DNA from: Rhizaria sp. SCN 62-66
Lineage: Eukaryota
Direction: 5' to 3'
Length of the DNA: 52,070 nt
Assembly (NCBI GenBank): GCA_001724265.1
Contig: MEDY01000211.1
Span: 1 to 52,070, forward strand
Below the pieces are notes generated by a model that saw only the letters and a program-made list of their open reading frames with translations, did no database searches and was not told the origin of the DNA. Position 1 is the stretch's first letter; the number at the start of each line of letters is the position of its first letter. Made by a program: the position numbers and the translations under genes. Below, piece by piece: positions 15,001-29,542 of the stretch.

Positions 15001-17188
15001 AGCTGCGCAAGCTACACGGCAGTGTCGCCGATTGTGCCCGTGCCAGTGGGCGCTGTACCGTGCACACCTCACTGCTGTGGCTTCAGCTCGTTCGTCCTGT
15101 CCTTGCCATGGCGCTGCCTCTGCGAACGATTCGACGGACGCATTTTGCACAGGAGCGCAGCTTGCTGCCAGTGTCATTGAAATGGCGCGCTCTGACATTG
15201 CTGCGCGGGTACGGCCGATGCCACGACTGGGCCGATCAGGCTCTGTGGTCTCGAGCTCTGGTGGAGACAGCCAACCAGACAACCAGCCCAGCTCCGGACC
15301 TGCAACAGGGCTTAGTGCGGTTGCTGGTGCGCCCTTGGCCTCCCCTAGAGCGATGCCCTTCTCGTTGCCATCACTCCCGCTTCCGCTCAGCGTTGCTGAG
15401 GAGAACGACGATGACGTTGGTGAGATATTTGTGACCCCATCTGTTCCTGCAGTAGTCACTGCTCCAGTGCAACAGGTCTGCTCGTGCACGCAGCAGCAGA
15501 CGCTTGCTGCCGTGCTCCGCTCGGCTGGCGTGCCTCGTCACTACATTACCGTTGCTGTTCCCATCCCTGACGGCGCATCCGGGTCCGTCTCGAACGCATC
15601 TAGGGGTGGCGTGTTTGCCGCATCCGGTGCATTTGATGACGATGCGCTGCGCGATGACGAGAGCGATGACGACGACCGCTCTCCGGTGGCCCCACCTTCT
15701 TCAAGGGCGTTGCACGTTGCTGTGCATGGCACGTGCGACCGCGATGCCATCTTTGCCCATTGCGCCACCATCTCTCTCTCCACGGTAGCACCGCCCTGCC
15801 AGCGCCTTGAGGCTTACGCCGCCGCAATCGCTGCCCGCCCCGCTGCCGCCGGTGGTGCCACTTATGCCGCTAGCTCCTACACAAGTCCTGCCGACATCTG
15901 TGCCCACTTTAGCCCAACTAAAACTGCTGCGGTAACTGTTAAGGGCGGCGAAAGTGACGTTGACTCGCTTGCCCGGGCGCTCCGCTTGCTCGACGCCAAC
16001 GATCCCTTGGCGGCCGCAGACGGCAGTTCAACGCAGTTTATTCTCCCAACGCCGTTGGTGTCCGTCGCACCTGCGGAGGAGGGCGACGACCCTGCGTTGG
16101 ACGGTTACAAGCCCTACCGCTCCGGCGACTGGCTGCGCGCCTCTACGCTACGCGGTGGCCACGCCGCCCGTCCCCCCGCGGGCACCGACATTACGCTGGC
16201 TACCGACGCACCGTTGCGCATGGCTTGGGTGCTCCCACATCCATTCGCTCAGTCGTCTGGCCACGTCGATGGTCCTATAGTGACTTTGGCGGCCACAACA
16301 GAGGCATTTACCGCGGCCGTCGCGGAGTCGGCTGCAATTGCAGCGGGCGTTGCAGCGCCTGTACAGGCAAGTGCGGCCGCCGCTCTGCCCCCCGTCTCCG
16401 CCGCCGCTGTTGCCGCAGCTGCTGCGAGCGCGTTTGCGCGCGCGTGTGCTTCCGAGGGCGGAGCTGCGACTTCCGACGGCGACGCCTGCGTCCGCGTCGA
16501 GGCAGTCATTCGTGCCGCGCGGGCGTGCGGCGCGCTGCGTTCGCTGACGCAAGCGGCCCCGCTGAACCCCGCCGCGCTGTGGGGCCCGCGGGCTGCCGTA
16601 GCGGCTGGCTCTCGGCCTGCCACGCGCGCCGCCCCGCTGCGACGCGCTGCCACCGTGCCGCCGCCTGTCGCCGACGACGTGGTGCCCGTGTGCGAGCTCT
16701 CACTGCTGGGCTACGGCGCGTCTGCGGCGGCAGCAGCTGCGCGGTCTGCGGCAGGCAACACCCATGCGGCTGCACACGCGGCTGCGTGCGAGTGCGGCTC
16801 GCACTGCGCAAGCTTCGGGTTCCGCAGCACTGCGGCGCGCCCCGCACAGCCCTCCATCCAGCCTGCCGCGCTCACAGTGTCTCCCGCTGCGGACCGCTCG
16901 GCGACCCCCGATACGGGTCTACTCTGCCAGCGCACGGCTGCCGGTGCCGCGTCAGATGCCGCCGCGCTAGTTGCGGCGCGCGCGTGGATGCTGGCCTCGA
17001 GCGTCGCAGCCGCCGCGGCCGCCGCGAACACCGCGGCCGGGGCGCCAGGTAATGCCAGACTTGTCGCAGGTTTGCCCACTCCCGCCGCAGGTGCCGTCGC
17101 TGCTCTTGACGCAGCAAGTGCCTCCACTGAGTCGTCGGGTTCGCGCAGGCGCCTCCGGTTTGTGGAAATCAAGGAGGAGAGCTTTTGA
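2..17188 (+). CDS. Giant Ala-rich protein, 5'-partial (>=5,728 aa), with dispersed TSNAXIP1-like (translin-associated factor X-interacting protein 1) motifs
   Basis: The frame of the 227..17188 ORF is open back to base 2 and ends TTT TGA TGA. Short blocks resemble TSNAXIP1 as I recall it and occur in the same order: EHATLDCELALATQERD...LTPR (~3902-4021), FMGLG (~11993), LRTVFPLKPPAHIEELL (~12480-12530), PFMSLLRAQ (~14390), LRLLD (~15980). Coding status is firm; the family call is tentative. Confidence 0.75.
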   Translation, partial: RADAAQLAAPWRPPRGFEARNAVDSTDADAAALEEALAAPPAARLSHGARAATAAAQELAVSAGGSGSAALEEADMSGLAQGVRALQRRGSAELAPPSPRRGSVADAADGANAAAGDAGVLSATAQSTTLPSARDFLAALAANAAAGAAVLERSARGMPLGAHREHPFAAAADPAGGGGVLARATAPRAVRLPVRPLPYGFVTAGDRAVAAQVAALRTAAVAAAADVIDTVTTAAAANAGSTATETEPAALMPPRLALSRAEAPAAAALRAAIGGNHGLTGAAPALGTLRQREQRLLMSGAAAALQVLFPATPDTPDLSLPTVQLLLLQKDGATAESSAGAVGDAAPHNGGAADAADESDGDVEQEADPEAEAADAAVRGQSLAAYMDQPGSDEEALRLPPGATVSTPFPMPPPRAAAAGSPALTPLTEATATGGIAVPVQAPARVRGVGAPVPALPRLAMPEPSQSTALVPGALLPPLALSDSARGSARGTARATSRTTLLDRAPVEKPAFEASVAMSALAASKVRPNKASFYPSTLLTVPADPLVAAQSAATSARVRTTAAAAARAAAAAKQRSGAVAIDPRAVAAAFAASAEAEALALRAAVAALPAGDHHRAVPTATFATGALVPFAADGPSSARAGTRNDIAAAAEAALVSSGSISHSAGAGVGITTNRVSSAVEAEMGDYRSPMVFVQAKLAELLGEARAPWANGTNSSWQPRAMPANAGDDRAFLTQLTDDAERKRLIFGDTPLGSATAAAAVAAGGLTEPAAELDDDGALLSTLHSTAARAHALVDLLEIGLRARLGLRATAATAVLADPNVAAPTAAASLFPDKIADPYELPAHTTARASTSAAALAGSGSAGAVTAAVSIDPRYTVVPAATLAAAALSSAAATGARLEPESGLVDAGTVLTDGAGDVWRDAAGDPCHGDLLLRVSGLAEAGAADDDTPADAAAVAAADAGLVELCTDPALLDAAVCAIFSELREAVFSREHLEVTGVADSVADDARSVSSAANAAAARVAAVTASAEVALAQQLRAAAANDAANARDAAAMRADVLASAAREAQWQAPELPGVFHTEDAFAATNAAKRQGFAATSTALVDLDAPNPAPVQAPAPPAAPSRVRLLPVPHFAVAHRLAAALRGLERESATAAAEVARLEEAEHTQEQELQWRSAWRAKKDLQLQLYRRGEAGLLEELALIARIDADTRQEVAQLAQDNLQLLQGYTRPGLVLGGAAEREWRLRLVDGHMYPPSSSSDSEGGDDEGDEADAKTSASQRPARHLSSTIGHTLYDVYRRLLRQRTEHATLDCELALATQERDALLLRFEALSTLTAQTLVHLTPRAIVPAALPVLPASVARTLESNATPGSAPAHSAGASGWSSQSPFSQTPSLSVANPAANNAQNKTITTAALEWADAQAARWDRWMRRAFPSLLPTAGEEALELPRYYALMRRRMLRQAHADAARRTRAQVLTQQLASQQRTAEAAGSLSAASSFGARSGVMTRNTSATAISLAHAHGHASAADAQERKDATAAEIDAAYAGVDEPESAVGGAFDRALWRWLALRAGAADWGLIGLAALDGTATITGAERPLESVLAAAARNHARHTRAAAAVWALNNSGYAPFSPRASDPFDGYTSDSGSDCDAPMPVLIPDLHADSSRDDDTAAAAAAAAKAAAAEPAAATPVRRAAAHELPLSTLLQHERRMQAAPASDASNALRLPGEEEGEAAPMRLPPPIAMHRRTSLSHLATAAAAAAAATAAAAAAAAAGSSPHAGSAASAGAAFGGRNSSSSGSFFGNPPALAQGLGRRNSVSLALAADAAAAAAAAAAAAAASPSSQAPPVEPRRERAAPRALRARAPRSRRAAASRRGQQIAGRRRSVASSSESGSSSGDQDDDDDDEVIDAAEAAVLASEGAEHAALAAQLLRPGLTRPRPPTGSTVPTLGALAGANRSGTMPPLPSAGGRSVRLRPRGAAAPETVAAALVAQPAGLSTPGRRSLSAASGGTPAQSQPPTPSGSTTPRVPGALQAFTKRPSLFASAEALALAQTALLAGSTARPSVFGALARTAAPGAAVTVNPGTWHSPALAVAVRNLTKRAIRRLREATPWHQAMLLTSATEAAAAASTVANTGGTVVLTTAAGKIAADTAATAAADAAVVRALDNEVAAAAAGAADAASVALGRSRHRDATSVFIENEDSTRVHGAQAVEASTIAVTTALQAWDDAAAAAAASVTVTDAEPPASFLPALSHSAAVETSSQAHSRPPTRPGTAAGAGVPSSSQLDAAEQALAAQALIAVIRQPGLLNAPLSASPFAVMPNTPKPAGDGGFPLLLSPRASMTSPLAPLLQLAASAAAAPTAATAEQTTARASFFTQMAQVAPTEQRSTESRAAAVIPRSLLPLLPPQMVLLMRAVPTLPLAAALAKLVSPAPLPAASVTAASSGAAAAAALSAASTAGGIGYGTPGQQRRSMVQRPSMVRSSTVGLAPTPVPMTPAVSLQPPTPMTTTAPALAAPTLTSVASNSAVLSVTVSQLPRLPTSLPPAVTLLVSAARLTLLRAASVLVTRSTGGKGRAAAAARAKAALQAVSVNVDAAAANATHGKDASLSPSPRRSSLADLRSPNAPLTPTSGATPAAGSHPTQSPAAVGSSSASARGPMLPPLVAAAVTAAMASALGLPLPSIEVRSSMRPTVSALETAVAALDAAAAAAAPAESTLQTATAQGSVALSTSKSASQRAAQRASAGPAAALAVVATAVRALLPQAAPANTAISSGVNSGFSTTPSSVPAFGWGSAAPTPLASSTAASSDSSSVGPLSPRHRRNASNDSAATPASAMHSPAAAGGLALVAGSVGVAAALAAALGVRLGGHSRRPSQSGIVGPLSPSRGRSKSPSAAAAAAAAAGGLTTPGVDRSRTVKSPRAPPTGAAPTPSAGRTAFTFDLPETGAPPLARASSVADSVSSPRSRRGGVHGGATPLAISSPRSGATTSTRAAHGHARRGSAAGATASAASAANRFAALETLLTRQVNLLRYLRRARAAVVLPPPPPPVYLSLPLLLDAAPQLAPLWAVTLTLVHANTNSPTRGSGLVLAARALGLPAGSTALAHMSALTAVAGPLWRVLLSEPLASLPTPARAIVTALLARSNTVSARARAAAAAAAATAALQALETARTVSVLLTAEIALGEAWLSTNPMLAAAVTATETTKTNLFVETGPDSDTDADTDSDSDDGGTAKRAAGLSRRTPTKVSRSAMVDAEISACVNGFSVTSAALYASADALATALSPATADDRQNATLPIHPLVARALSLSTPYRALHSARRRAAAAAVRRAARARAAAEAAATAAALAAAARKAAHKARAKARAAEKHRLRTGGARSSSTATAAVIDAVTEVPVVVPAEEPVPTLPAPLPGSIAAADAATAAAASATEFSVRCARRRRAAVTALTALNTAAQAHATWWMSVAAAAGAPVSVSWNQHSRSDDPELVLQRVSASDADPACGGESNIDITPDAVGATNSDDLNRTGSPRPPRRAAPRRPPTGPSTAALSPATLARALPSVPNRPAPRRAAPRLAPGATSGTATLATTLVVGSIFAVQRTPSPVPVREIPALFPTAVFNSVASAVAFEERRARHRDALWARMSVTSRSLKSVMSQLHRLKCTVHATSNGHSGSSSATQMNPDAMALLPFLSSDKFTSATLPAPKGSLPLSPPPLPLSAALVAAAEFSAVAAAADLQAQRRALATPLPTAATASGAALAAAATTAATAGAGLQTLLSPPLLHELFAAYVISKAEAVAIGACGSLRDAADIGLGTAALSHHPTEHGVWTVASKKVSDGVAVSEAKPDLDGQDALESAFRELAMIAKNSSNPAVAAAATAASAAPELPTVPTLTSMLLQAPRFVQADSSADSSALPVPAVAALIATSLMRAFAQHAVAEPSLALMLASLQDSIALAAAPCVAPIASVSASGSGIAAKKASSSTAPTTHVHSSSKKSAAASGSVADSIAVSCVMPPRRAVRHKFMGLGTASGVSAATGAPAVLCDDASVFDADDDNDAAAAVGSTPWPLSHLAAATEDASALDSAMRTWAAVASAQLEWALTTGAAATSSAFASAMDSAEGVPDVTPVCALTAALQASKRHRLSSARGRVAPPVPSFTPGLGDAGGDGGDGQLPQVLPLPLLRVLLRTVFPLKPPAHIEELLTVAVRDGGFVLRCDGPPPLAPDGTPLLAAQRRGRGPLGRNSKRNNETAVAGPVTAAVALAIASTAERTLVTLTANKAAQEANAGVSASSALLAVPPHLCDAAASTILAAGPAESVNNGPQQGGQQIQPPQAPSLMASLLDHRSGLTRDTWHRLLLQLSPANVTQSGLSSAAALALECTPGAHGLLTTLTKLLACPRVSPDSEARDNAPSASSRAPTIAALHEAVLSALGGDPADRAVAVGRHWASSTRGAARLAAAASLRNPLSAPHSSLAAVAPSVAPPAPVMLGRDIVQAGSSRTADATRPVTRAGAAAPGDDSASDSEALAGDNGVPASDSTDGMDWSWFDAPNLGPELQTAAQRVDAAVHVTYTAEGTAEAAVPAVHAAARTDWELDETLLAAAEAAVAKCTTRRALRALITAATERARSSVTSAVASALTAKSFELTQSFVYVGSVTTPNTSAITPNISTKAPAAPGAARKSRSSNLLQRLLVGGEGSLAPSEARAAFESAAADDEEQARVRVEAETAGLKPVSNTDASTGFTNGNTQKPNNNPVALARTVSNAATAARIFTPTGTLGSPVAAPVASIVCRQPSVLDRASSLLTVVSIPALLATPAASGAALTPTPFMSLLRAQALTESSDAVACTLRRSLHMSATALPHSRAVRARATTRAAARALATLARAAAAQRLAALPAASQMASLNDTAAAAAAVAQPSPVAGGETEAGSAASAPLQAPIVTAPVTVARASSRASVSSTPALAPRTMGSVPELTLAVPAAGPVASVVSSATACVAVSAAVGALGAAAGLADATLVLDALATGAPLPPAVTDCAAAQATRQCRRLCPCQWALYRAHLTAVASARSSCPCHGAASANDSTDAFCTGAQLAASVIEMARSDIAARVRPMPRLGRSGSVVSSSGGDSQPDNQPSSGPATGLSAVAGAPLASPRAMPFSLPSLPLPLSVAEENDDDVGEIFVTPSVPAVVTAPVQQVCSCTQQQTLAAVLRSAGVPRHYITVAVPIPDGASGSVSNASRGGVFAASGAFDDDALRDDESDDDDRSPVAPPSSRALHVAVHGTCDRDAIFAHCATISLSTVAPPCQRLEAYAAAIAARPAAAGGATYAASSYTSPADICAHFSPTKTAAVTVKGGESDVDSLARALRLLDANDPLAAADGSSTQFILPTPLVSVAPAEEGDDPALDGYKPYRSGDWLRASTLRGGHAARPPAGTDITLATDAPLRMAWVLPHPFAQSSGHVDGPIVTLAATTEAFTAAVAESAAIAAGVAAPVQASAAAALPPVSAAAVAAAAASAFARACASEGGAATSDGDACVRVEAVIRAARACGALRSLTQAAPLNPAALWGPRAAVAAGSRPATRAAPLRRAATVPPPVADDVVPVCELSLLGYGASAAAAAARSAAGNTHAAAHAAACECGSHCASFGFRSTAARPAQPSIQPAALTVSPAADRSATPDTGLLCQRTAAGAASDAAALVAARAWMLASSVAAAAAAANTAAGAPGNARLVAGLPTPAAGAVAALDAASASTESSGSRRRLRFVEIKEESF

Positions 17189-17454
17189 TGACGATCAACA
17201 CATTATTGTACGCAGCTGTTTTACCTACTACAGTGCGACCCTGTTTATCTATTCGTTACTTATCAACATTTTAAATAGTTAACTGCTTATTAATACACAT
17301 TTTAACATTTCATATCACGTGTTCTGTTGGGAAAATTTCCAATCTATTGTATTTCATATGGCCTGCATAAGTAGTTTGATCTTGGCCATCACTCATAAGA
17401 AGCTTTGTAACGTGTTTGCGTCCGCAACAATCAGACTGCTTAGTGTGCAAGTGC

Positions 17455-18215
17455 TCACTCGGCTTTGACGGCAGGCGCACGAGGCGTCTTGGGCTTGGCC
17501 TCGACCTGCGGCTTATTGCCCGAGAGCAGGTTCGAGATGGACATTTGCGACTGCATGCGGCGCATTTCAGCCTTCTCCTCGGGCGTCATGTTGCCCATGA
17601 GGCGCGGCATGAGCAGAGCCATGCCGCCCATCAGCACCATCATCAGCACCATCGGCTGCTTCAGCCACGCCAGCACGTCAATCGACTCGCGTGGCACGAA
17701 GTACGTCTCTGGCGCCGCGGGCCGCAGCTGGAGCGGGTACGCGGCGGGGGTGCGCACAGGCGTGGGGTCCGTCGCCGACAGCGCGTGCTGGCGGAACGCG
17801 GTCACCGCGCCCTTCTCGGAGACAATTATACTCGTCTAAGTGAAGTTGTGAGGCAAGATGAGAGAAGACGGCGATGGTTATGAGTGACACGTTCATGCTA
17901 TCCGGGCTTGCTAATCGTGCGGAGGTCATGGTGAAATGTTGATTGACGTACGGGTTCAAACTGAAAGCCTGTGGCGGAGACATCGACCGTGTACTGGCCG
18001 GGGGCAACGTCGGTGAAACTAAATCCGCCATCCTTGCGAATGAAGGCAGAGCGGCGGCCAGCGTCAAGGATGACCATCGCATCGAGGGGGGCAGCAGCAG
18101 GCGCCTTAAGTGCAGGGTTCATGTAGACGAACTTCACAGACCCGTCAATGGAGGCCGCAGAAGCAACCATAGCCATCGCACAAATAGCTACAGCAAGGAT
18201 AGTGCAACAATTCAT
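17455..18215 (-). CDS. EMC7: ER membrane protein complex subunit 7, 2 exons (18215-17952, 17835-17455), 214 aa
   Basis: Signal-peptide-like N-terminus (MNCCTILAVAICAMAMVASA). Beta-sandwich motif AFIRKDGGFSFTDVAPGQYTVDV. Then YFVPRESIDVLAWLKQPMVLMMV (TM) and MPRLMGNMTPEEKAEM, typical of EMC7/DUF2012. A phase-0 intron joins two ORF-track fragments in frame. Confidence 0.9.
17836..17951 (-). other. Spliceosomal intron in EMC7 (116 nt)
   Basis: CCC|GTACGT...TTCACTTAG|ACG; removal restores the frame. Confidence 0.88.
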
Positions 18216-18762
18216 CGAGAGAACCGGTAAAAGTGTTCTTGACGACTCAATCACCTCACACACAATCTGTGAATGAACAGCGATTCGGATCGGGGCTTTG
18301 ATTTTTTACGAACCTTGGGAATGGGGCGAAGAGACACCAAGCGAGGGATGAAACCACATGCTATTTTGCTTCTCCGGGTGATAAGTGTATCCATCACATA
18401 TGTTTTCTTAGGGTGCACACATTATTAACGCCCTACGACTCATCTTTTGGAACATTAAATTTTGTAGCCGAACACGTTCTTAGACTTGAAACCGATGTCT
18501 CGTAACCAACTGTAATGTCGGCCATTGCTCAGCAACTTTAAAAGCAGCGTCCCTCTCGGAGGCGCAAGACTTGTTGGACTCATATTGCATTGTTTGCTAT
18601 CTAATCTTATACGTTACTTCCTTTTGTGTTGTTGCAATTCAATTCTGTCTTCATTAGCGTCAACAGCAGGGAACTTTCCTGACAGCCCTCCCTAACCGTT
18701 GGTGAACCCCTCCGCTTCTGTCGTCGACCGCTCAGGTTCTCTGAGAGCGCCTCTAACCCGCG

Positions 18763-19096
18763 ATGCAGCCCATGGCGATGCAGCCGGCGCCCCGCGTGCC
18801 CTCGCGCCCGTCCTCGACGCGTCACAGCCGTCCGCCGGCTTCTGAGCACCAGTACCAGCACGCTCCCGTCCAGTCCCCGCAGCACCAGCCGCAACAACAG
18901 CAGGGCTTGCCCGCCCACTACCTCACACCCGCGCCGTCGTCGCGCATGACCACTGCCGTGAACTCGGCCGCGGCGCGCGCGCTGCAGAACACGGTTCCCA
19001 GCAAAGGCTTCGCGGCCCATGCGATGGGCTACGATGCGCCGCAGCAGATGCACTCACCGCCTTCGCAGCAACAGCAGCAGCAGGCGCAGCACCATT

Positions 19097-19140
<44 letters not shown>

Positions 19141-21078
19141 CAACAACAACAACAACAGCAAGCTGGACTGCCTGCCGGAATGTCGGCGCTGCAGCTAAAC
19201 CGTGTGCGCTCGCAGACGCCGCACTTTGACGCCTCCCCGCGCAAGGGTTTTCCCCCGCAGCAGCAGCAGCAGCAGCAGCAGCTGTCGCAGCAGCAGCTGC
19301 AGCAGCTGCAGCAGCAGACCCACGCGCAGCGCCAACAGCACCAGCAACAGACGCAGCAGCAAGACTACGCGTTCGCGCCCCACGGCGTGCGCGGCCGCGG
19401 CGGACACATGTCGCAGCCCAGCACGCCCGCGCACCGCTCCGCGCACAACTCCTTCGGCCCCAGTGCCAGCTCCGGCGCCGGCCCCGCGCCCGCTGCGTCG
19501 TCCACGCCCGCGCCCGCGCACGTGCCCGCGGCCGCTAGCCACCGCGCCGCCTCTCCGTCGCCCTACGCCGCGCAACAGCAACAGCAGCAGCAGCAGCCGC
19601 GTATGCAGGTGCAGATGCAGCAGCCCGTGGCTCAGTCGGGCCTCGCGGCGTCGCACCAGTCATCCGCCCTGGTTCCCGTGGCCTCGCCCGCGCCTACTAT
19701 GCAGACCCAGTCGAGCGGCGCGTTCGCGTCGAGCTCTGCCGTGGTCGCGGCTGCGACGAGCGGGCCGTTCCCGCTCTCCGCGTCGCTCGACGGCACGCTG
19801 GTCGAGTCCGTGCCCGTGGGCGCGGGCGCGGTCAAGTTGACGCCGCTGCAGGCTCTGTACAAGGACCGCTGCGACCTGCTGCGCTACCTGCACCACTACA
19901 AGGAGGACGTCGCGGCGCGCGAGAGCGACATGCGCGCTGCTTTCGTCCGCCTCGCGCAGGAGCTGGGCCGTGCCAAGCGCGACCTGGGCGCGCTGCAGCA
20001 GCGCGAGGCGATGCTGCGCGACCTGTGCAAGGGCATGCTGCTTGACAAGGGCGCGCACAAGGTGCACGCGCAGAGCGAGGAGGCATTCTGGTCCGCGCTA
20101 GGGCTGGGCGCCCCCGACGCCGCGGGCGCCAACGCGGGCGCCGTGACGGCGGGCACGACCTCGGGTGGCAAGGCCATCTCGCTGCTCATCGCGTCGCAGC
20201 CGGCCGACTCGTTTGCCTTCGACTCTGAGGCCGTGTCGGGCACCTATTGGGGCCAGCACATCGCCGCGCCCGTGCCCGCCAAGACGGTCGCCAACAACGC
20301 CGCAATGGGCACCTCGGCCGTCGCGGGCGCGGGCGCGGGCAACGCCGCGGCGTCGTCGGGCAACTATGTCTCCTTCGGCGAGTTCCAGAAGATGCGCGCG
20401 AAGCTCACTGCGCTGGACCGCGAGCGCCGCGAGAGCGCGGAGAAGATTGCGCAGCTGCAGAAGGAAAATGACCGCTTCCGCACCAAGCAGCGCGACCAGG
20501 CGCTGGCGCGCACCGACGCCAAGTGGGAAAAGCAGCGCGAGCACCTCATGGGCGCCGTCAAACGCATTCAGTGGCTCGTTGGCGAAACTAAGCGCCTTGA
20601 GAAGGGCCGCAAGGACGACGCGGCCTACATCCTGCGCCTCGAGCAGGCCATGCTCGCGATGCGCCAGCGGCTGCGCACGGTGACCGCGGGCGCTGCCGCG
20701 GGCCCCACGCCGCAGCAGCTGCAGCAGCAGACGCAGCGCCAGGCCGCGAGCGCCGCCGCCGCGCTGCAGGGCACCGGCATCTCGCTCCATGCCGCGGTGC
20801 CGCGCGTCTTCGGCGAGCCCGCGTCGGCGGCCGCCACGCTGCCCGCGGGCCTGACCTCTGCGCCCGGCACGCCGGTCCGCGGCCCCGGCGGCGCGGGCGC
20901 GGCCCCCACCCCGGGCTCTGGCTCGGCGGACCTGCAGGCCGCGGTGCGCCGCCTGCGGAGACTCGAGATGCACACTGCGCTCTACCAGTCCGCGAACGCA
21001 CCCCAACAGCCGCAGCAGCAGCCAGTGCAGCAGCAGCCACCGCAACAGTACGCGCATCAGGGTTATGCTCCGCAGCAG

Positions 21079-21109
<31 letters not shown>

Positions 21110-21699
21110 CGCAGCAGGCTGACTACGGCCACGGCGACTACGCCCCCGAGCACGCTGACGGCCAGTACGACGGCAGCCAGTACGGCAATGGCGAGTACGG
21201 CCACGAGCCCTCACAGCACCAGCAGCATCAGGGCCAGTCTGAGGCCGAGCCCCACCCGTCCCACGCCCCAGCCAATGCCTCCGGCGCCGCGCCCAGCGCG
21301 GGCTACGGCGGCGGCGGCGAGGAAGACATGCTGAGCGACGAGGCTTTGGCGGCACTGCTGGCCGAAGCCGACGGCGCGGCCGCCGCGGTCGCCGACGAGG
21401 ACGCCGACACGGATCAGTCGCAGTCGCAGGGCGCTACGCCCGCGCACCGCCGCGCGGGCTCCGTCTCCGGCGGCGGGGTCTCGTCCCTGCAGGGCGACCC
21501 GGCCGCCGCCGACGTCAGCGGCGTCGGCGGCGATGGCGACTGGGCGTCGTCGTCGATGATGCGCGACCTGCTGGCCGAGGCCGGTGTCGACGCGGATGAG
21601 CTCATGGGCTTTGCGCAGGCGCGCAAGAACGCTCCGGGCCCCGCGCCGCAGCCTGGTCAGCCACAACAGCACCAGCAGCAGGGAAGCCGTTTAAACTGA
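18763..21699 (+). CDS. PolyQ-rich coiled-coil protein, 978 aa (zero-frame product of a probable frameshifted gene)
   Basis: ATG start and strong GC3 bias. Two predicted coiled-coil blocks (LQALYKDRCDLL...; FGEFQKMRAKLTALDRERRES...) and polyQ tracts. Ends CGT TTA AAC TGA. Confidence 0.85.
19099..19161 (+). repeat. CAG/CAA trinucleotide repeat encoding Q21
   Basis: Read directly from the sequence. Confidence 0.95.
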
Positions 21700-21739
21700 T
21701 TTCCGCTGCCGGTGGGAGTGCGCACCCAGTGATGGCGGA
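21690..21739 (+). promoter_or_regulatory. Candidate -1 programmed ribosomal frameshift signal (T_TTA_AAC, 5-nt spacer, hairpin)
   Basis: X_XXY_YYZ heptamer at 21690-21696, in phase with the upstream ORF, with TGA at 21697. Stem 21702-21708 pairs with 21733-21739; inner TGGG/CCCA pair. The -1 frame runs to 23828. Confidence 0.65.
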
Positions 21740-21807
21740 CGGTAACGCCGCCCTGCCTTCCGCGCGCACCTGGGCGGGACTGCAGCAGACACAGCAACAT
21801 CAATACG

Positions 21808-21838
<31 letters not shown>

Positions 21839-23828
21839 GCAACAGCAGTGGCAGCATCAGCAGCCTCAACAGCCGCAGCCGCAGCAGATGACATGGCACC
21901 AGATGCTCTCCGCGTCTGCCGCCGCCTCGATGTCGCAGTCGTCCGCGCAGTCTCCCGCCCCGGGCGCCGCCGCCTCACTCGCGCACGCTGGGACCCCTGT
22001 CCCAGCCCAGCCTACCGCCAGCGGATCTCTCTTCGCATCCGCTTCTTCCCCTCCGTCGCGCCCGCGCTCCGCAGCCCCGCATGCGGCCAGCACCGCGCCC
22101 AGAGCGTCGCTGGTGCCCGCCGCGGCGACGCGCCCGCTCTCACGGCCCATGTCCCGCGCGCGCCACGCGGCCTCGCCCGCGCACACGCCGGCGGCCTCGC
22201 GCTCGCCCGCCGCGGGCCGTCCCAGCCGCTTGCAGACCGTCGCGCAAGGCCTCGCTCGCCGCGCGCTCGCCGGTCGCGCCGCGTCCCCCGCCGCGTGCGA
22301 TGGCGGGCACGACTTCGCGGCCTCCGCGCCCGCTTTCTCGCTCGGCGCGCTTAACAGCACACCCTCGCGCCGCGCGCGTCTGGCCGCTAACGTTGCCTCG
22401 CCGGGCAGTGAGGCCGCGCCCCGTGGTCGCCCGCGCCCGTCCGTATCAATGCACGCCGGCAACGCCGTGCTCGACACCGCCCCACCCAACGATGACGAGG
22501 ACGGCGGCTTTGGCGGCTACGGATACGGCCCCAGACCCACCGCGCGCGCCGCCGCAGCCGCGTACGAAGCCGAGCTGGGTGCGCTGCAGACGGCCTTCGA
22601 GACGGACACGGCGCCCGCGCCGTCGCCCTCGGCCTCGGTCGCGGGCGTGGGCTCGTACGCGCAGACGACGTCGGTGCAGCGCAGCCGGGCAGACGCTGTC
22701 CGCGCCTCGGCCGCGCACGGACCCGCTTACGCGCCTGTGCCCGCGCGGTCCGCGACACCCGCGCGCCGCAACGCTGCCGAGACCGCCGCGGCGACGGTCA
22801 AGCCCGACATTGCGGCCCGCAAGGCCGCGCGCAAGACCAAGGCCGACGACGCCGCCGCCGCGTACGAAGCGTACCAGCGCGACCAGTTCGCCGTGTCCGG
22901 CGCCGGTGCCGAGCTCTCTGACGGCGGCCCCGCGGACTCTGATGACTACGACGACGCTGCCGACGACGACTACAACAGTTCGCGCGCCGGCGGGCTCTCG
23001 CCGGGCTCCGTGCGCGGCGGCGTCGCGCCCCCCGGTCCCAGCGCCGGCCGCGACCGCGCGACCCGCGCCGCGGACCTGAGCGAGACGCTGGCGCTGTTCC
23101 AGGAGCGCGCGCATATGGACGACGCCGACGCCGCGTACGCCGAGGCGCTAGCCGCCGCCCGTAGCCTGCGCACACCGAAGGCCGGCGCGCAGGGCTTCCC
23201 CCGCGGCAGCCCCGCGCGGTCTGCCACCCGCGCCGACGCCGCACCCGTCTACTACAAACACAACGACGATGAAGACGACGATGACGAGTACGACGGTAAC
23301 GATGCTGCTGGTCATGCCGCGCGCCCTGGCTCGATCGCGCCCGGCTCGAGCGGCAGCGGCGATGCCTACGCGAGCAGCGGCGACGGACACCGCGCCGGCG
23401 CAGCCTCACCCCCCGTGAGCCGCGTCGCTGGCCACCCATTCACCCCGCGCGGCGCCAGTGCGGCTCCCGTCTTTGCTGCGCATGCGTCGGTCAATGTGAC
23501 CACACAGAGTGCCGGTGATGACGACGGCAACGACAACGGTGAAGATGACGAGGAAGAGCTGGTGCCGCCGCCGTTCGCGGCTGACGACAGCGCCGTCGAG
23601 CACAGCCTCGAGGGAGGCGTGATCGGCGGCGGCATCGGCGGCGACGACGGCTTTGGCTACGGGTATGGCGACGACGACGCGGCTGCGCACGGGGCGAACT
23701 TGATGTTCCCGGACGCGCCAGAGACCGGCGACGCGGGCCACCGTGAGCATCGCCGCAGCAGCGCCGGCGCAGGCGAGGATGAGGGCGATGAACTGAACCT
23801 TGACCTGAACTTCTCTGACGAACTGTGA
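21696..23828 (+). CDS. Low-complexity acidic/Ala-rich extension (710 codons in the -1 frame; first ATG at 21732)
   Basis: Long open frame with coding-like GC3 bias. Its first ATG is only 32 nt after the upstream stop and there is no AT-rich spacer, so it is probably part of the same gene. Confidence 0.75.
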
Positions 23829-24376
23829 TGCTCTCGCACGTAGAAACGTTTGCCCCGTGACTATACCAGTGTTCTGTCGGCCGTTGCAGGACACACTCCA
23901 CTTAACCTATGTAAGGCTGATCGGCACAGTGCACGTTGATGCCGAGATGTTCTTAACACAAACACTACACTTCTTTTCTCAAAACCCAGCTTTATTTTTC
24001 AACCGTTTTCACTCTTCGCGTTATTATTTTGTTTCTTCTTTTGTCTTTTCCCGTTTGACGATGTGTTGTTTTGCAGTGAGTATTCTTGTGATCCTGCAAA
24101 ACAATAGGTACACGTAGTTTTCTCGTGTCATCCCATTTCGCCAGTAGTATTTTTATGTTCGTATGGTAACGTTCTGTGTTCATAAACCTAACAATACACG
24201 CTATTTTATTTTTAGCAATCTCGTTTTATGTTGTTTCAACCATGCAAGTTTCATTTTTTATAAATAAAAATCTATGTATTGAATCGAGTCACAACTGCAA
24301 TATAATTTCGCATCACGCTCAATAAAGCTAGATAAACATACTTCTAAGGATACTCCACCATTTGGTCATCGCGCAT

Positions 24377-27300
24377 TTACGCGTGGAGCGGTGGCGGCGG
24401 GACCCAGCCGCCGACCTGGCTGTGAATCGCGAGCGCGGCGGCGATCGTGACACCGTCGCAGCCAAAGGCGGAGACGACCTGCACGCCGGTGGGCAGTAGG
24501 CGCACGCCAGGCGTCACGTGGTGCTGCGGAACCGAATGCACCGCGGGTAGCGCCTCCACGGGGCCCGCCACCGACGGGCTGGTCAGACCGGCCGCCGCGT
24601 GCGCCGTGCACGCGCATACGCACTCGGCGGCGTGCGACGCGGCGCCGTTGGCGGCCGTGGAGACCGCGACGGCGATGTCGTCGTCGCCGGGAATTAGCCC
24701 CACTGCCTGCGCGGCTGCGGACGCCGCGGCGGCAAGCACGTGCAGAGCCTGCGCCCAGACTGTGTGCCCGCGCGCGGCGTCGTGCGCGACGGCCTTCAGC
24801 GCGAGCACGCCCGCCGCGGCGCCGGCGCGCAGGAAGCCCCACGCGACGGCCACGGCGTCCACGGCGCGGTCGCCCAGCGTCGGCGTCGACGGCGGCGGCG
24901 CGGCGCGAACCGCGCCCGCAGGCAACACGCTGCGCTCGCCGGGCACCGCGAGCCGCAGCGAGGCGACGGGTGGGCCCGTCGGCGGCGACGGCGTCGGCGG
25001 CAGCGCGGGTGCGCCGTCGGGCTGTGCGAGCGTGGCAAGCGCGCGGCGGCCGCCAGTGCCGCGCGGCAGCATGCGCAGGAAGGTCGACACGGCGGCGCGC
25101 GCCAGGACACCCGCGCCGCTGCCGAGCCCGCGGCCCGCGAAGGCCGGGCCGGCCGGGTGGCGCTGGCGCTGCGTGGGCACGAAGCCTGGGCACGACTCGG
25201 CCGCAACCGCCGCCGCGGGGCCCGTCGCGGGCGCAAGGTAGCGGGCCGCCGCGGAGGACATCACGGCGGGCGACGCGACGACCTTAGCCGAGTCGGCCGC
25301 GCCACAGGGCCCCATGGCGCAGGCGCAGCGGCACGCGGGCCCGCAGCCGCCCTGCGTTGGCGCCGCCGAGGCCCCCACTGCGGGACTGCGGCCTGCGGCG
25401 GCCGCGAGCGCGTCAGCGCGCGACGTGAGCGTTTGGCTGTCGGAGCGGTAGTCGTACCAGCGCGACGTGGGGTAGTAGCCGTCGCGGCAAACGTCGAGGC
25501 CCATCGGCACCGACGTCACCGGCAGCTGCAGCGCGTTGAAAATGGCCGTGTAGACAACGTTGAAGGGCGTGAAGTACGGCAGCGTGTGCCGCGGCGCCAG
25601 CACCGGGTGCGGCGGCAGCACCAGCACGGCGGGGCCCGGCGCAGCGGCCGCGTTGCCAGCGCCGGTGACCGAGGGCGGGCTGGAGAGCGCGGAGTGCAGC
25701 ACAGCGGCGACGGCGCGGGCCTTTTCCTGGCCGCGGCGGCGCAGCGCGGGCACGGCCTCCGACAGCGCCTCGACGAGGCTCAACAGCAGCGCGGGGACCG
25801 TGTGCGGCGTCAGCGACGGCGCGAGCGCGCAAAGCACAACGTGCAGGAAGATGTACAGCGTGACAACGACCTCGTACGCAATGCGCGTGGGGAGCGAGCG
25901 GGTCGGGGCGCGGGGAACCGTCATCGGCACGGCACACGCGTTTGCAGTGTCTTTGCCGGCGAGCGCGGCTGCACGCGCGCGGGCCGCAAAGACGTCGGGG
26001 ATGCGGTGCACAGTGAAGCATGACCTCAGCAGCAGTTGGAGCTGGAACACGAGCCAAACGAGTGCGCGCGTAACCAACCACGCGTCGGACAGCAGGTACA
26101 GCTGCAGGCGCGCTGCGAACAGACGCCGCAGTGCCGATTGCTTCTCCGCGCGCGCGGCCTCGGCGCCGGCATCGACAGCGGCGGCGGGCGTGGCGGCGGT
26201 GGCCACGGGGGCCTCGGCGTCGGGGTCGACGCAGTCCTGCAGCAGCAGGTCGCGGAACGCGGGCCCGCCGGCGCCCGACACGCACGCAGACCAGATGTCG
26301 AAGCCCGCCGACAGCGGCGGCAGCGGCAGCGCGTGCACGTTGGCGGCCGGCACGCCCGCACGGCGCAGCGCGGCGACGGCGCGCAGCACGGCCGCCTGCG
26401 CCGCGGGCTCGGCCGCCTGGCTCAAGCACTCGCTCGGCTCGTCCGTGCCGTCGCGCCCACCGCCGTCCACAGCAGCCCTGACCTCGGTGTCCGAGGAGAC
26501 GAGGCCAAGAAACTGCGCGCGGCGCAGCAGCCAGCGCGGCCAGCCCCAGCGCTCCGCGACGGGCGGCAGCGTGGGCAGGTAGTAGACCGTGAGCCGCGAC
26601 AGGTCCACGGCCGCGGGCGGCGCGCCGCAGAAGGGCGCCGGCACCGCGGGGCGCACGGCGCACGACGCCAGCAGCGCGGGCGGCACGGCGGCCGCGGCTG
26701 CAGGGCCAGACAGCTGCGTAGCCGCGGTCACCAGCGCGAAGCTATCATCGTGGCCAGTCGCAGTGGTCGCAGTGGCCACCGTGACGTCGCTCGGAACAGC
26801 GGAGAGCTCAGCCCCCGCGGGGACAGGCTCGGTGGCGCGGACGAAAGCGGTGGGTTTGGACGCAGCCGCGGTAGACTCCCCGCCGGCGAGTGCGGGCACA
26901 GGCAGTCCGAGCATTGCGGCGACGGCGGCCAGCAGTGCGCGGTCGACGTGGACCGGGACCATGACGCTGCTGTCGCTGGAGCGCGCGGTGGAACACATGG
27001 CGCGGTACTCGAGCAGCAGCTCGTCGGTCTCGCTCTCACTTTCACTTATCGCCACAGCGACTGCAGTGTCCACGTGGGGCGCCGTGGAGGCCGAGATGAG
27101 TCCGCCCGCGGTGGTGTCGGGCGCGTCGGCGTCGGCATCGGTGATGCGCGCACCTGCGGCCGGACCGGTCAGCAGCACGTCGTCGACAAAGGCATCGGCG
27201 GCCAGCACACGCTTCACCGCGACCGCAGTCGCGGCATCGGCGCCGGAGCCAATGTTTAGCTCGCGCAGCGCGGCCACGAGCGCAGCGCCCTCCGCGACGG

Positions 27301-29542
27301 CCGCGGTCTCGGCCGCAGCGGCGGCGGACGCGGCGGGAGCGAAGGCAGCGGCGCGGGCAGCGGCGCGCAGGCGCAGTAGCGAGAGCAGCTCTGTGCTCGA
27401 GATGCCGTGCGGGCCGGCCAGCGCGAGGTCGGAGCCGGCGTTGCTGCTGAAGCCGATGGCGTCCTCGCCGTCGTCCTCGGTCGCGGGGGCGGTCGTGCGC
27501 CACACCCAGGGCTGCTCCACAAGCAGCGACGTGTGCGCTGCAGTGTCGCTGCAGGCCTCTGTCGCAGAGATCGCCGGGGTGGCAACTGCAGTCGAGGCCG
27601 CAGTTGCAGCAGAGCGCACAGCGTTGCGCTCGCGCACGCCGTCCTCATTGCTTTTGCTCTCAGCGCCCGCTTCGTCTTCGTCCGTGCGCGCAGCTGTGCT
27701 CGCGGCGCGTGCGCGCGATGCCTTGCTGTGCGCCGCGCGCGCGGTGAGTGCGGCGAGGTCGTCCGGGAAATCGGCCGGGTCCGCGAAGCCCAGCATCGCG
27801 GCCGCCTTGGCGGAGATGCCGCCGCGCGCCGCTCTCCCCGCCGCCGCCATGGCGCCCGCGCGGGGCTGGCCGGCAGCGGCGGCGACTGCGCGGCCCGCGG
27901 GGAGCACGGGCAGCGTGGTGACGTGGCGCGCGGACCGCGGCAGCGCCATCGGGTCCGCCTCGATGCCGCCCGCGACCGTGGCCACCGTGGCGCTGCGGCC
28001 GCCTGAGCACCCAGCCGACGGCCCAGTGGGCAGCGCAACGGTGGCGAAGGAAGTGGGCAGAGGCGCGCCGCGGATGGCGAGCAGCGCGGGCCACAGGTCC
28101 GCGGGATGGCGCACGATGGGGCCCGTCTGGCAGATGCGGTCGGTCTCGCCGGTCAGCGGCCACGCAACAGCGTCGACGTCACCAGCAGAGTCAAAGTCGA
28201 CGGCGCCAACGCCTACGCCAGAGTTGTGTGAGTGCGAGTACGAGTACGCGGTGACGTCGGCGGCGGCCGAGGGCGGCCATTGGCCCCTGTTGGACGTGAC
28301 GCCGCCAGAGGGCTTGTGGCCGTAGAGGCCGGTGAAGAAGCAGGGCATGCGGATGGAACCGCCGACGTCGGAACCCATGGACAGCGGCGAGGCCAGCGCG
28401 GCGACGAGCGCGGCTTCGCCGCCCGAGGACCCACCCGGCGTGCGCGCGAGATCGTAGGGGTTTGCCGTGCGCCCGTAGACGCGGTTCTGCGACTCCATCC
28501 ACATGCACAGCTCCGAAGTGTTGCTCACGCCCAGCAACACGAGTCCGCTGCGCCGCAGCCGCGCCACGGCCGGAGACGTCACCAGCGACACGCCGCGCAC
28601 CGCGTTGGTCGGCGCTGCGGCCACGAGAGAGGGCGCGGGGCGCTCGAAGGCGACGCCGCCCGCGCTGCCAGGGGTCACCAGCGCGACGGGCAGCGCGTCG
28701 GCGGCGATGGCGGCCTCAAAGCCCGTGGTGAGAATGCCTTCGGTGTCGCAGGCCGCGGCCGGCAGCGCGCGCGGCACGGCGGCGCCCGTGAGCGCCCAGG
28801 CCGGCGGCGCGAAAGGGTCCGCGTTCGCGGCCGGGTGTGCCGCATTGCGCCGGGTCAGTGTCGCCGCGTGCACGGCGGCGTCGGCGCGCGCGCGCAAGGC
28901 CGAGGCGTCGGCCTGGTCTGCGGCGGCAGTCAGCAGCGCGGTGGGCGCGCGTGAGAGCAGCCCCGAAGTGTTGGGCAATCCGGCGACGGCGAAGCACTCC
29001 TTGGTGGTGAAGGGCACGCCGAGGAACGGCGGCGGCTGCGACACGGCTAGCACGAGGTCGGCGGGCAACACACGCGGCGGACACATCGAGCCCAGTGCCG
29101 GGCAATGCTCCGACAGCATTGCGGCACGCACGCGCGCAGCAGCAGCGCGACGGCGGCGAAGATATTCGTCGATCGCAGCGGCACGGGCAAGCGCATCGTC
29201 GAAGCAGTCCGCCACAAGCGCGTTAAGAGCATGATTGACGGCGCGAATCTGGGTGATGTGCGCAGAGACCACAGCAGTTGACGTCGTAATGTTGTGGCGA
29301 ATGCGCTGCGCCAGCTCCGTCGCGGAGCATTGCAGGTCCGCGTTCACTTCACGGTGCACGTAGTACGAGAGGTTCTGCAACGGGGCCAACTCCAGGCGCG
29401 AATTGAAGAACTGTTGAAGAACAACAAAGCCAATCGTAACTGAAACAAACGGAACTAGGAACGGAAGGCTCCATACTGTCTGGATATCAAACAGAAGCCA
29501 CGCTAGGAACGCAGTTGCGCCCACGGCGACCATGTGCATCAT
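24377..29542 (-). CDS. Amidase signature family protein, FAAH2-like, 1,721 aa with large low-complexity inserts
   Basis: N-terminal hydrophobic segment. PFLGVPFTTKE (catalytic Lys), GVSNTSELCMWMES, GRTANPYDLARTPGGSSGGEAA, GSDVGGSIRMP (Ser-cisSer-Lys triad), GLYGHKPS, YTAIFNALQLPVTSVPMGL, LPTGVQVV, GGWVPP. First ATG is at 29542 (the ORF track starts at a TTG). Confidence 0.92.
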   Translation of the reverse strand: MMHMVAVGATAFLAWLLFDIQTVWSLPFLVPFVSVTIGFVVLQQFFNSRLELAPLQNLSYYVHREVNADLQCSATELAQRIRHNITTSTAVVSAHITQIRAVNHALNALVADCFDDALARAAAIDEYLRRRRAAAARVRAAMLSEHCPALGSMCPPRVLPADLVLAVSQPPPFLGVPFTTKECFAVAGLPNTSGLLSRAPTALLTAAADQADASALRARADAAVHAATLTRRNAAHPAANADPFAPPAWALTGAAVPRALPAAACDTEGILTTGFEAAIAADALPVALVTPGSAGGVAFERPAPSLVAAAPTNAVRGVSLVTSPAVARLRRSGLVLLGVSNTSELCMWMESQNRVYGRTANPYDLARTPGGSSGGEAALVAALASPLSMGSDVGGSIRMPCFFTGLYGHKPSGGVTSNRGQWPPSAAADVTAYSYSHSHNSGVGVGAVDFDSAGDVDAVAWPLTGETDRICQTGPIVRHPADLWPALLAIRGAPLPTSFATVALPTGPSAGCSGGRSATVATVAGGIEADPMALPRSARHVTTLPVLPAGRAVAAAAGQPRAGAMAAAGRAARGGISAKAAAMLGFADPADFPDDLAALTARAAHSKASRARAASTAARTDEDEAGAESKSNEDGVRERNAVRSAATAASTAVATPAISATEACSDTAAHTSLLVEQPWVWRTTAPATEDDGEDAIGFSSNAGSDLALAGPHGISSTELLSLLRLRAAARAAAFAPAASAAAAAETAAVAEGAALVAALRELNIGSGADAATAVAVKRVLAADAFVDDVLLTGPAAGARITDADADAPDTTAGGLISASTAPHVDTAVAVAISESESETDELLLEYRAMCSTARSSDSSVMVPVHVDRALLAAVAAMLGLPVPALAGGESTAAASKPTAFVRATEPVPAGAELSAVPSDVTVATATTATGHDDSFALVTAATQLSGPAAAAAVPPALLASCAVRPAVPAPFCGAPPAAVDLSRLTVYYLPTLPPVAERWGWPRWLLRRAQFLGLVSSDTEVRAAVDGGGRDGTDEPSECLSQAAEPAAQAAVLRAVAALRRAGVPAANVHALPLPPLSAGFDIWSACVSGAGGPAFRDLLLQDCVDPDAEAPVATAATPAAAVDAGAEAARAEKQSALRRLFAARLQLYLLSDAWLVTRALVWLVFQLQLLLRSCFTVHRIPDVFAARARAAALAGKDTANACAVPMTVPRAPTRSLPTRIAYEVVVTLYIFLHVVLCALAPSLTPHTVPALLLSLVEALSEAVPALRRRGQEKARAVAAVLHSALSSPPSVTGAGNAAAAPGPAVLVLPPHPVLAPRHTLPYFTPFNVVYTAIFNALQLPVTSVPMGLDVCRDGYYPTSRWYDYRSDSQTLTSRADALAAAAGRSPAVGASAAPTQGGCGPACRCACAMGPCGAADSAKVVASPAVMSSAAARYLAPATGPAAAVAAESCPGFVPTQRQRHPAGPAFAGRGLGSGAGVLARAAVSTFLRMLPRGTGGRRALATLAQPDGAPALPPTPSPPTGPPVASLRLAVPGERSVLPAGAVRAAPPPSTPTLGDRAVDAVAVAWGFLRAGAAAGVLALKAVAHDAARGHTVWAQALHVLAAAASAAAQAVGLIPGDDDIAVAVSTAANGAASHAAECVCACTAHAAAGLTSPSVAGPVEALPAVHSVPQHHVTPGVRLLPTGVQVVSAFGCDGVTIAAALAIHSQVGGWVPPPPLHA

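Follow-up and report, generated by a model that had tools for sequence, protein, structure and literature searches.

Two open reading frames meeting at a coronavirus-type slippery heptamer in a GC-rich protist genome: programmed -1 frameshifting as a real but unproven possibility

The described system closest to the locus reported here is the -1 frameshift signal of coronaviruses and arteriviruses. The heptamer of that signal (given in the available part of PMC5009743) is identical in sequence and phase to the one found here, and the resemblance extends to a 5-nt spacer, a GC-rich stem-loop, a frame-0 stop codon beyond the heptamer and a long -1 ORF, the first part of which shares its DNA with the end of the upstream ORF. 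However, the present site lies in a cellular-looking protist gene, is followed by no pseudoknot above background level, and would lead into a disordered tail rather than an enzyme. The same source ranks U_UUA_AAC with the -1 heptamers on which mammalian cytoplasmic ribosomes slip most readily (PMC5009743). PEG10 and the PNMA genes, which are domesticated from Ty3/Gypsy gag-pol, are likewise chromosomal genes in which a -1 slip extends the protein (PMC5009743, available part), whereas in the two ORFs described below, B1 and B2, neither gag nor protease nor any other domain of retroelements is present. Euplotes offers protist nuclear genes with a frame change right at a stop codon (PMC4759687, available part), but in Euplotes many genes are affected and the reading frame moves by +1, whereas a shift at the present locus would go to -1, would take place on a tandem-slip heptamer, and would concern no other gene of the window. 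Finally, frameshifting that corrects an indel shares with our locus a DNA-level frame break at a shift-prone sequence, from which some full-length product is possible (PMC5009743, available part); it differs in that an in-frame ancestor is without support here, and the B1 stop seems to be where the homologues end too.

If real, the mechanism at this locus would be a known one in an unusual setting. The available text of two sources describes validated cellular -1 frameshifting as rare outside retroelement-derived genes (10.1101/2021.04.23.441185, PMC11451614). Here we describe two ORFs that meet, with no spacer, at a slippery site in the GC-rich genome of a wastewater protist known only from uncultured material, for which programmed frameshifting is a real but unproven possibility.

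Anatomy of the junction

The window, by which we mean the whole stretch of 52,070 nt analysed, is made up of large ORFs on both strands at 70-78% GC and is nearly intron-free. The spacers between its other gene pairs measure 450-1,500 nt and are AT-rich (30-50% GC), and in the spacers that flank the locus (18000-18750 and 23850-24300) GC drops to 0.3-0.5. Contigs that match positions 20200-23200 come from sequencing runs of bioreactors, wastewater and activated sludge, and three of these runs may have supplied the DNA of the window. Pfam recognises the following genes around the locus:

24377-29542, minus strand: amidase domain protein, 1,721 aa
41121-46580, minus strand: protein kinase, 1,819 aa
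48128-47790, minus strand: Roadblock/LC7 domain
48819-50561, plus strand: AMPK-beta carbohydrate-binding module (AMPK1_CBM)

The nearest ESM Atlas clusters of the AMPK-beta protein are all eukaryotic, and the organism is a eukaryote. The amidase and kinase proteins are swollen by low-complexity sequence, with Pfam accounting for no more than some 100-150 residues in either protein. A giant ORF at 2-17188 (plus strand), open at the 5' end of the window and more than 5,650 aa long, has 19 TTA codons and a weaker bias in third-position GC (GC3) than its neighbours, and matches no Pfam family; ARAGORN reports inside it a 'tRNA-???' with a four-base anticodon (16454-16545, plus strand), most likely a false positive. 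None of the window's other genes has a frame break, true introns excepted. At the locus itself the features are these:

18763-21699, plus strand: ORF B1, 978 aa, whose frame is taken as frame 0
21595-21615, plus strand: codons for DELMGFA, a motif also found at the C-terminal ends of two homologues, P0006 and P0007
21600-21699, plus strand: overlap that is open in frame 0 as well as in the -1 frame
21690-21696, plus strand: T_TTA_AAC heptamer, within the palindrome GTTTAAAC (21689-21696)
21690-23828, plus strand: ORF B2, read in the -1 frame, with 712 codons counted from the heptamer and its first ATG at 21732
21697-21699, plus strand: frame-0 stop codon TGA, immediately 3' of the heptamer
21702-21739, plus strand: hairpin made up of an outer stem of 7 bp, inner stems of 2 bp and 4 bp and an 8-nt loop
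21764-21769, plus strand: GCGCAC, complementary to loop positions 21718-21723 and a possible second stem of a pseudoknot

The first-pass annotation had read the end of the 978-aa ORF as AGC CGT TTA AAC TGA and had placed a heptamer there in X_XXY_YYZ phase, and both are borne out: the codons CGT TTA AAC set T_TTA_AAC at 21690-21696 in exactly that phase, and its TTA is, as had also been suspected, the sole such codon in B1 (one of 979 codons, stop included). The -1 frame does read FKLISAAGGSAHPVM and stays open to 23828, giving the proposed fusion of 978 and 710 residues, 1,688 aa in total; translated from 21690, it begins FKLISAAGGSAHPVMADG. Q-rich coding sequence in frame 0 extends to 21681 and the -1 frame before the heptamer looks non-coding, so the change of frame falls within the last 18 nt before the stop, and the in-phase heptamer occupies the final place that the two-frame overlap allows.

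By composition both ORFs look like genuine coding DNA. B1 has a GC3 of about 0.9 in frame 0 up to its stop, and B2 one of about 0.88 in the -1 frame, itself open from 21600, up to 23828; with a GC3 of 0.8-0.9 each in its own frame, the two change over at the stop with no AT-rich spacer between them. The distance from the stop to ATG 21732 is 32 nt at a GC content of about 0.6, in agreement with the earlier remark that this gap is far shorter than the true spacers, which measure 450-1,500 nt elsewhere. GC3 is relaxed to 0.6-0.75 over 21610-21790, against 0.9-1.0 just upstream, which could reflect either constraint on the RNA or recently recruited coding sequence. Reading of TGA as a sense codon was considered and rejected: five other genes (A, B2, D, E and G) all stop at TGA and are then followed by AT-rich DNA, and frame 0 past the B1 stop lacks a coding signature. 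GTTTAA and CTGATTT were sought as shared end-of-gene motifs, and neither recurs at gene ends in the window.

How often would such a heptamer be expected at the break? In eight ORFs comprising 14,394 codons there are 32 in-phase XXXYYYZ heptamers, only four of which have AAA or TTT as YYY (TTTAAAC, GGGTTTT, CCCTTTC and AAATTTG). The three others of this A/U type give a chance rate of 2.1e-4 per codon, or about 2 per 10,000, and hence a probability of about 0.007 for the 33-codon overlap and of about 0.001 for its last 6 codons. The presence of the heptamer at the frame break is more than chance. TTTAAAC occurs at two sites in 52 kb, and the 26.8 kb of coding DNA holds 19 AT islands at least as AT-rich as the one around the heptamer. 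Position 21690 is singled out only by its coincidence with a 712-codon coding ORF and a frame-0 stop.

The RNA structure proposed downstream exists as drawn. The stem 21702-08/21733-39 with its inner UGGG/CCCA pairing is the minimum-energy fold of 21697-21745 (-18.7 kcal/mol), the spacer between heptamer and hairpin is 5 nt as had been stated, and the complement of the loop is indeed found at 21764. Its stability is unexceptional, with a z of -1.13 (26 of 200 shuffles are equally stable) that approaches 0 for longer windows, and with equally stable folds in 38% of 1,234 coding windows of 49 nt and in 47% of coding windows of 79 nt; by chance alone, 60 nt should contain 0.2 complements to the loop. 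Neither the hairpin nor the putative pseudoknot stands out from the background that coding DNA of such GC content provides. Rfam assigned no family at gathering score, and when 21500-21950 was searched at E values up to 10 the 19 matches obtained all lay far under the gathering score, with no frameshift element on this strand.

A second in-phase heptamer, G_GGT_TTT, lies within B1 at 19245-19251 and is followed by a hairpin of -23.5 kcal/mol and an open -1 run of 97 codons. This site is probably due to chance, and it indicates that a heptamer with a hairpin does arise by chance in this DNA.

Sequence integrity, transcripts and splicing

An assembly indel had been raised in the first-pass annotation as a competing cause of the frame break, and the frameshifting idea survives the check. 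A separately built 758-nt contig from a DNA run, X1, with a word depth of 23.6, matches 21123-21800 with no differences and no gaps, so the frame break is not an assembly indel, and no indel at the junction is listed in any of the four runs compared. B2 has been called separately, as a 699-aa ORF with a GTG start, on three public contigs (the longest of 52,251 nt), and the ESM Atlas contains the 978-aa product letter for letter, with the same end; together with the X1 contig these make the frame break reproducible. All three contigs have it in identical form, and 5 kb contain no other defect. The DNA at the junction is correct, and the anatomy of the junction is as set out above.

The frame break could still stem from an assembly or consensus error, or belong to one allele of a polymorphic indel whose intact allele lies elsewhere. 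X1 is possibly the window's own sample and was compared as contigs, not raw reads, in which case the agreement tests the assembler rather than the population; contigs drop rare variants, and X4, an RNA run of another study, has no cover at the site. Set against this are the base-for-base agreement of the separately built contig at its depth of 23.6, the separate B2 ORF on three contigs and the Atlas protein with its identical end, and runs of three T or three A are not known to be error-prone in short-read data. The chance that the break is an artefact or a minority genotype is, in our judgement, minimal.

Possible transcript evidence comes from both sides of the junction. Contigs of X4, a polyA metatranscriptome, match 20200-21661 and 22257-22973 at 100% identity except for one piece, and contigs of X5 (same study, kind unspecified) match 21128-21312 and 21892-22660. 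Contigs of a polyA library match both B1 and B2 at 100% identity and are putative transcripts or DNA carry-over. Among the X4 and X5 contigs (contigs were compared, not reads) none bridges 21662-21891, 21715-21815 being uncovered, and no X6 piece across the junction is among the matches listed. The junction sits between two CAG repeats that break contigs, and the missing RNA cover there is evidence neither way. One X5 contig agrees with the window as far as 21681, where it turns into a loose end of 12 letters, a CAG stretch reading CAGCAGCAGCAG. Were 21681 joined to 21816, where a CAG run begins, 134 nt would be left out and B1 and B2 fused in frame, without canonical splice ends; the X5 piece is short, was placed at 90% likeness and probably belongs to another CAG-rich locus.

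Short introns at the junction had also been put forward as a competing way of joining the ORFs in frame, and were compared with the introns counted as verified in this window because removing them restores domain continuity (a slash marks the donor site):

50562-50730, plus strand: intron of the AMPK-beta gene between AMPK1_CBM and AMPKBI, 169 nt, donor CAG/GTACGC (the AMPKBI match past it reaches 22.5 bits, slightly short of the 24.3 required)
47789-47589, minus strand: intron of the Roadblock/LC7 gene, 201 nt, donor AAG/GTACGA

Both have a GC content of 0.37-0.41 and 80-85% pyrimidine before CAG; a third likely donor, CAG/GTATGT, is found at 34024, and the window's other large genes show no introns. 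The candidates at the junction, 21689-21729 (41 nt, GTTTAA) and 21656-21729 (74 nt, GTCAGC), have a GC content of 0.59-0.61 and 45% pyrimidine before AG, so that they are unlike the verified introns (n = 2) in donor, GC content, pyrimidine content and length. The remark that neither donor resembles the local GTAYG holds good: 21560-21700 contains no GTAYG donor, the nearest upstream being at 21195. With CAG abundant nearby, 299 GT/GC...AG pairs around the junction keep the frame, and the existence of an in-frame splice pair carries no weight. A conventional intron at the junction is unlikely.

An unconventional joining at the RNA level would use the 41-nt or 74-nt GC-rich intron or a CAG-CAG join from 21673-81 to 21816. 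The frame stays open in all three joins, the X5 contig that runs to 21681 before its loose end could be a trace of the last of them, and CTGAT at 21696-21700 is similar to a branch site (consensus CTRAY). However, the donors GTTTAA and GTCAGC contrast with the verified GTACGC and GTACGA and the candidate GTATGT, and lengths of 41 and 74 nt at 0.59-0.61 GC and 45% pyrimidine contrast with 169 and 201 nt at 0.37-0.41 and 80-85%; the CAG-CAG join offers no GT-AG, GC-AG or AT-AC ends in any register, and the X5 piece, for the reasons just given, speaks for another locus. We regard RNA-level joining of this kind as very unlikely. Both the intron and the artefact readings have been weakened by direct tests.

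The two predicted products and their relatives

The B1 product is rich in Q and A, with two conserved coiled-coil-like blocks. No Pfam or NCBIfam family matches it, no function follows from PDB sequences or the ESM Atlas, and its Atlas model has a pLDDT of 0.43. An exhaustive HMMER search with B1 residues 331-978 against 1.84 billion representative proteins yielded six weak homologues (P0003-P0008) of at most 740 aa, all of them unnamed singletons outside any Pfam family; P0006, P0007 and P0008 are encoded on contigs of 16-38 kb. P0006 (740 aa) and P0007 (561 aa) look complete and have both coiled-coil blocks in common with B1, which belongs to a small coiled-coil protein family with no assigned function. 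In a word-index protein search with B1 residues 330-720, only the window's own protein fragments were among the matches listed.

The predicted B2 product is acidic, disordered and of low complexity, and it too lacks any Pfam or NCBIfam family and any function assignable from PDB sequences or the ESM Atlas. Its C-terminus reads NFSDEL (23814-23828), and a signal peptide is not evident after ATG 21732; the final SDEL resembles an ER-retention tail. Word-index searches, one comparing B2 with longer proteins and one using B2 residues 270-712, had only the window's own fragments among the matches listed. The earlier statement that no gag/pol motifs are present stands, with no gag, protease or reverse-transcriptase domain in B1 or B2 (no Pfam match for either).

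No homologue of B1 has anything in common with B2, and none of the six is fused to anything B2-like. A metagenome scan gave a single match, L001, which is 100% identical to window 15638-20175 and ends before the junction, and genome-contig and viral-contig scans matched nothing; across the protein, metagenome, genome-contig and viral-contig searches no relative spans the B1/B2 junction, for the word-index part of the protein searches among the matches listed. The two complete-looking homologues appear to end where B1 ends. The motif [DE][DE][LI]x[GS]FA is followed by 27 residues to the protein end in B1, 27 in P0006 and 10 in P0007, and as a regular expression it matches once in the 89,767 aa of the window's six-frame ORFs. 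This motif was chosen post hoc, a local alignment of the C-terminal tails does not reach significance (275 and 536 of 2,000 shuffles), and a two-sequence HMM fails to pick it out. The comparison gives a weak hint that the B1 stop may be the ancestral protein end. That P0006 and P0007 appear to end at the B1 end, with no B2 part, would fit a normal stop with an optional extension.

The same homologues could be taken to mean that B1 and B2 are two separately expressed cistrons, B1 ending at its natural stop and B2 starting from ATG 21732 by way of an internal start site, of trans-splicing at CCCAG/TG (21729), or of reinitiation. This would agree with B1 homologues that seem to end alike and have no B2-like part, with the sequence around ATG 21732 (G at -3, G at +4, and an AG 3 nt ahead), and with gene callers having recorded B2 as a separate ORF. 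It is hard to square with a gap of 32 nt at about 0.6 GC where 450-1,500 nt of AT-rich spacer are found elsewhere, with the lack of a pyrimidine tract before the AG, or with the lack of TGTAA after the B1 stop; the end of a tailed RNA contig near 21700 was not found among the matches listed, and we know of no expectation that eukaryotic ribosomes reinitiate after an ORF of 978 codons. The coincidence with the heptamer would also be left without explanation. Separate expression is in our view distinctly unlikely.

TGTAA occurs at 17406, 23910, 33386, 40842 and 51495 (plus strand), 68-370 nt past the stops of five plus-strand genes. In green algae TGTAA acts as a polyadenylation signal, and it may do so here. 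It is absent between the B1 and B2 stops, that is, between 21699 and 23828.

A further way to read the junction is as a fossil or truncation without programmed recoding, in which B2 is untranslated or translated at error level only. In one version the loss of a single nucleotide from a short run of T or A would have broken a continuous ORF; in another, deletion of a spacer would have brought two neighbouring genes together. Either would be the simplest account of a frame break in verified DNA, B2 retaining its coding signature because the event was recent. B2 is of low complexity, has no relatives among the matches listed and is probably dispensable, GC3 is relaxed at about 21610-21790, and short homopolymer runs are the usual sites of indels. 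That low-level frameshifting can compensate indels (PMC5009743, available part) is a further point in favour. Against these stands the need for a canonical heptamer to lie in phase at the break by coincidence, with a probability of about 0.001-0.007, and for a stop to follow within one codon when the median open -1 run in B1 is 53 codons, a figure to be taken as a rough guide. Homologues that seem to end at the B1 end speak, weakly, against an ORF that was once continuous; a deleted spacer must have spared both ORFs, just 32 nt apart; and the break is the sole defect in 5 kb, the same in three contigs. We consider this account unlikely.

Recoding weighed against the other readings

According to the frameshifting model, B1 and B2 would form one transcription unit read from a single transcript. 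Most ribosomes would stop at the TGA at 21697 and release the 978-aa coiled-coil protein, and a minority would slip back one base on U_UUA_AAC, aided by the GC-rich hairpin 5 nt downstream. The slipped ribosomes would read the -1 frame to 23828 and add an acidic, disordered tail of 710 aa, for a predicted product of 1,688 aa. A short and a long isoform made from one mRNA in a fixed proportion are thus a reasonable expectation rather than a result.

As first proposed, this model drew on a heptamer, two ORFs and a downstream structure. It has come through the indel and intron tests, and both ORFs have a coding signature; the structure, in contrast, turned out no better than background, no X4 or X5 contig and no relative among the matches listed bridges the junction, and positive signs of a slip are weak or absent. 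In its favour we count the position of the heptamer, the switch in GC3 with no spacer, the verified DNA, the lack of a fitting intron and the absence of TGTAA between the stops. Against it we count that a 1-nt deletion in a run of four T or four A would give exactly the same sequence, together with the background-level structure, the chance control at 19245 and the post hoc nature of the C-terminal motif. A priori, cellular -1 frameshifting has a very low probability and a broken or fossil ORF a much higher one, and the heptamer coincidence is worth roughly two orders of magnitude in odds. On balance we favour programmed -1 frameshifting, tentatively, as the single best explanation; the combined probability of a fossil ORF that is not translated, of separate expression and of odd splicing is higher than that of frameshifting.

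The fuller evolutionary scenario would be that of a -1 frameshift outside retroelements in a free-living protist, in which a conserved coiled-coil protein keeps its ancestral stop and an ORF of 710 aa, captured in this lineage, serves as an optional tail that a coronavirus-type slip on U_UUA_AAC makes accessible. We hold this scenario to be doubtful.

Very few cellular genes that do not derive from retroelements have validated -1 frameshifting, and some of the cases in print are under dispute. Should B2 prove to be a fossil ORF, the locus would be a warning that very GC-rich genomes yield heptamer-plus-hairpin patterns by chance. If frameshifting is true, ordinary nuclear genes can use a viral mechanism to make two isoforms, in this instance with a textbook heptamer, an extension of 2.1 kb and, upstream of it, a protein whose relatives appear to finish at the frame-0 stop codon. 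Such a gene fusion would have come about by recoding, not by loss of a stop codon, and would represent one way in which neighbouring genes become linked.
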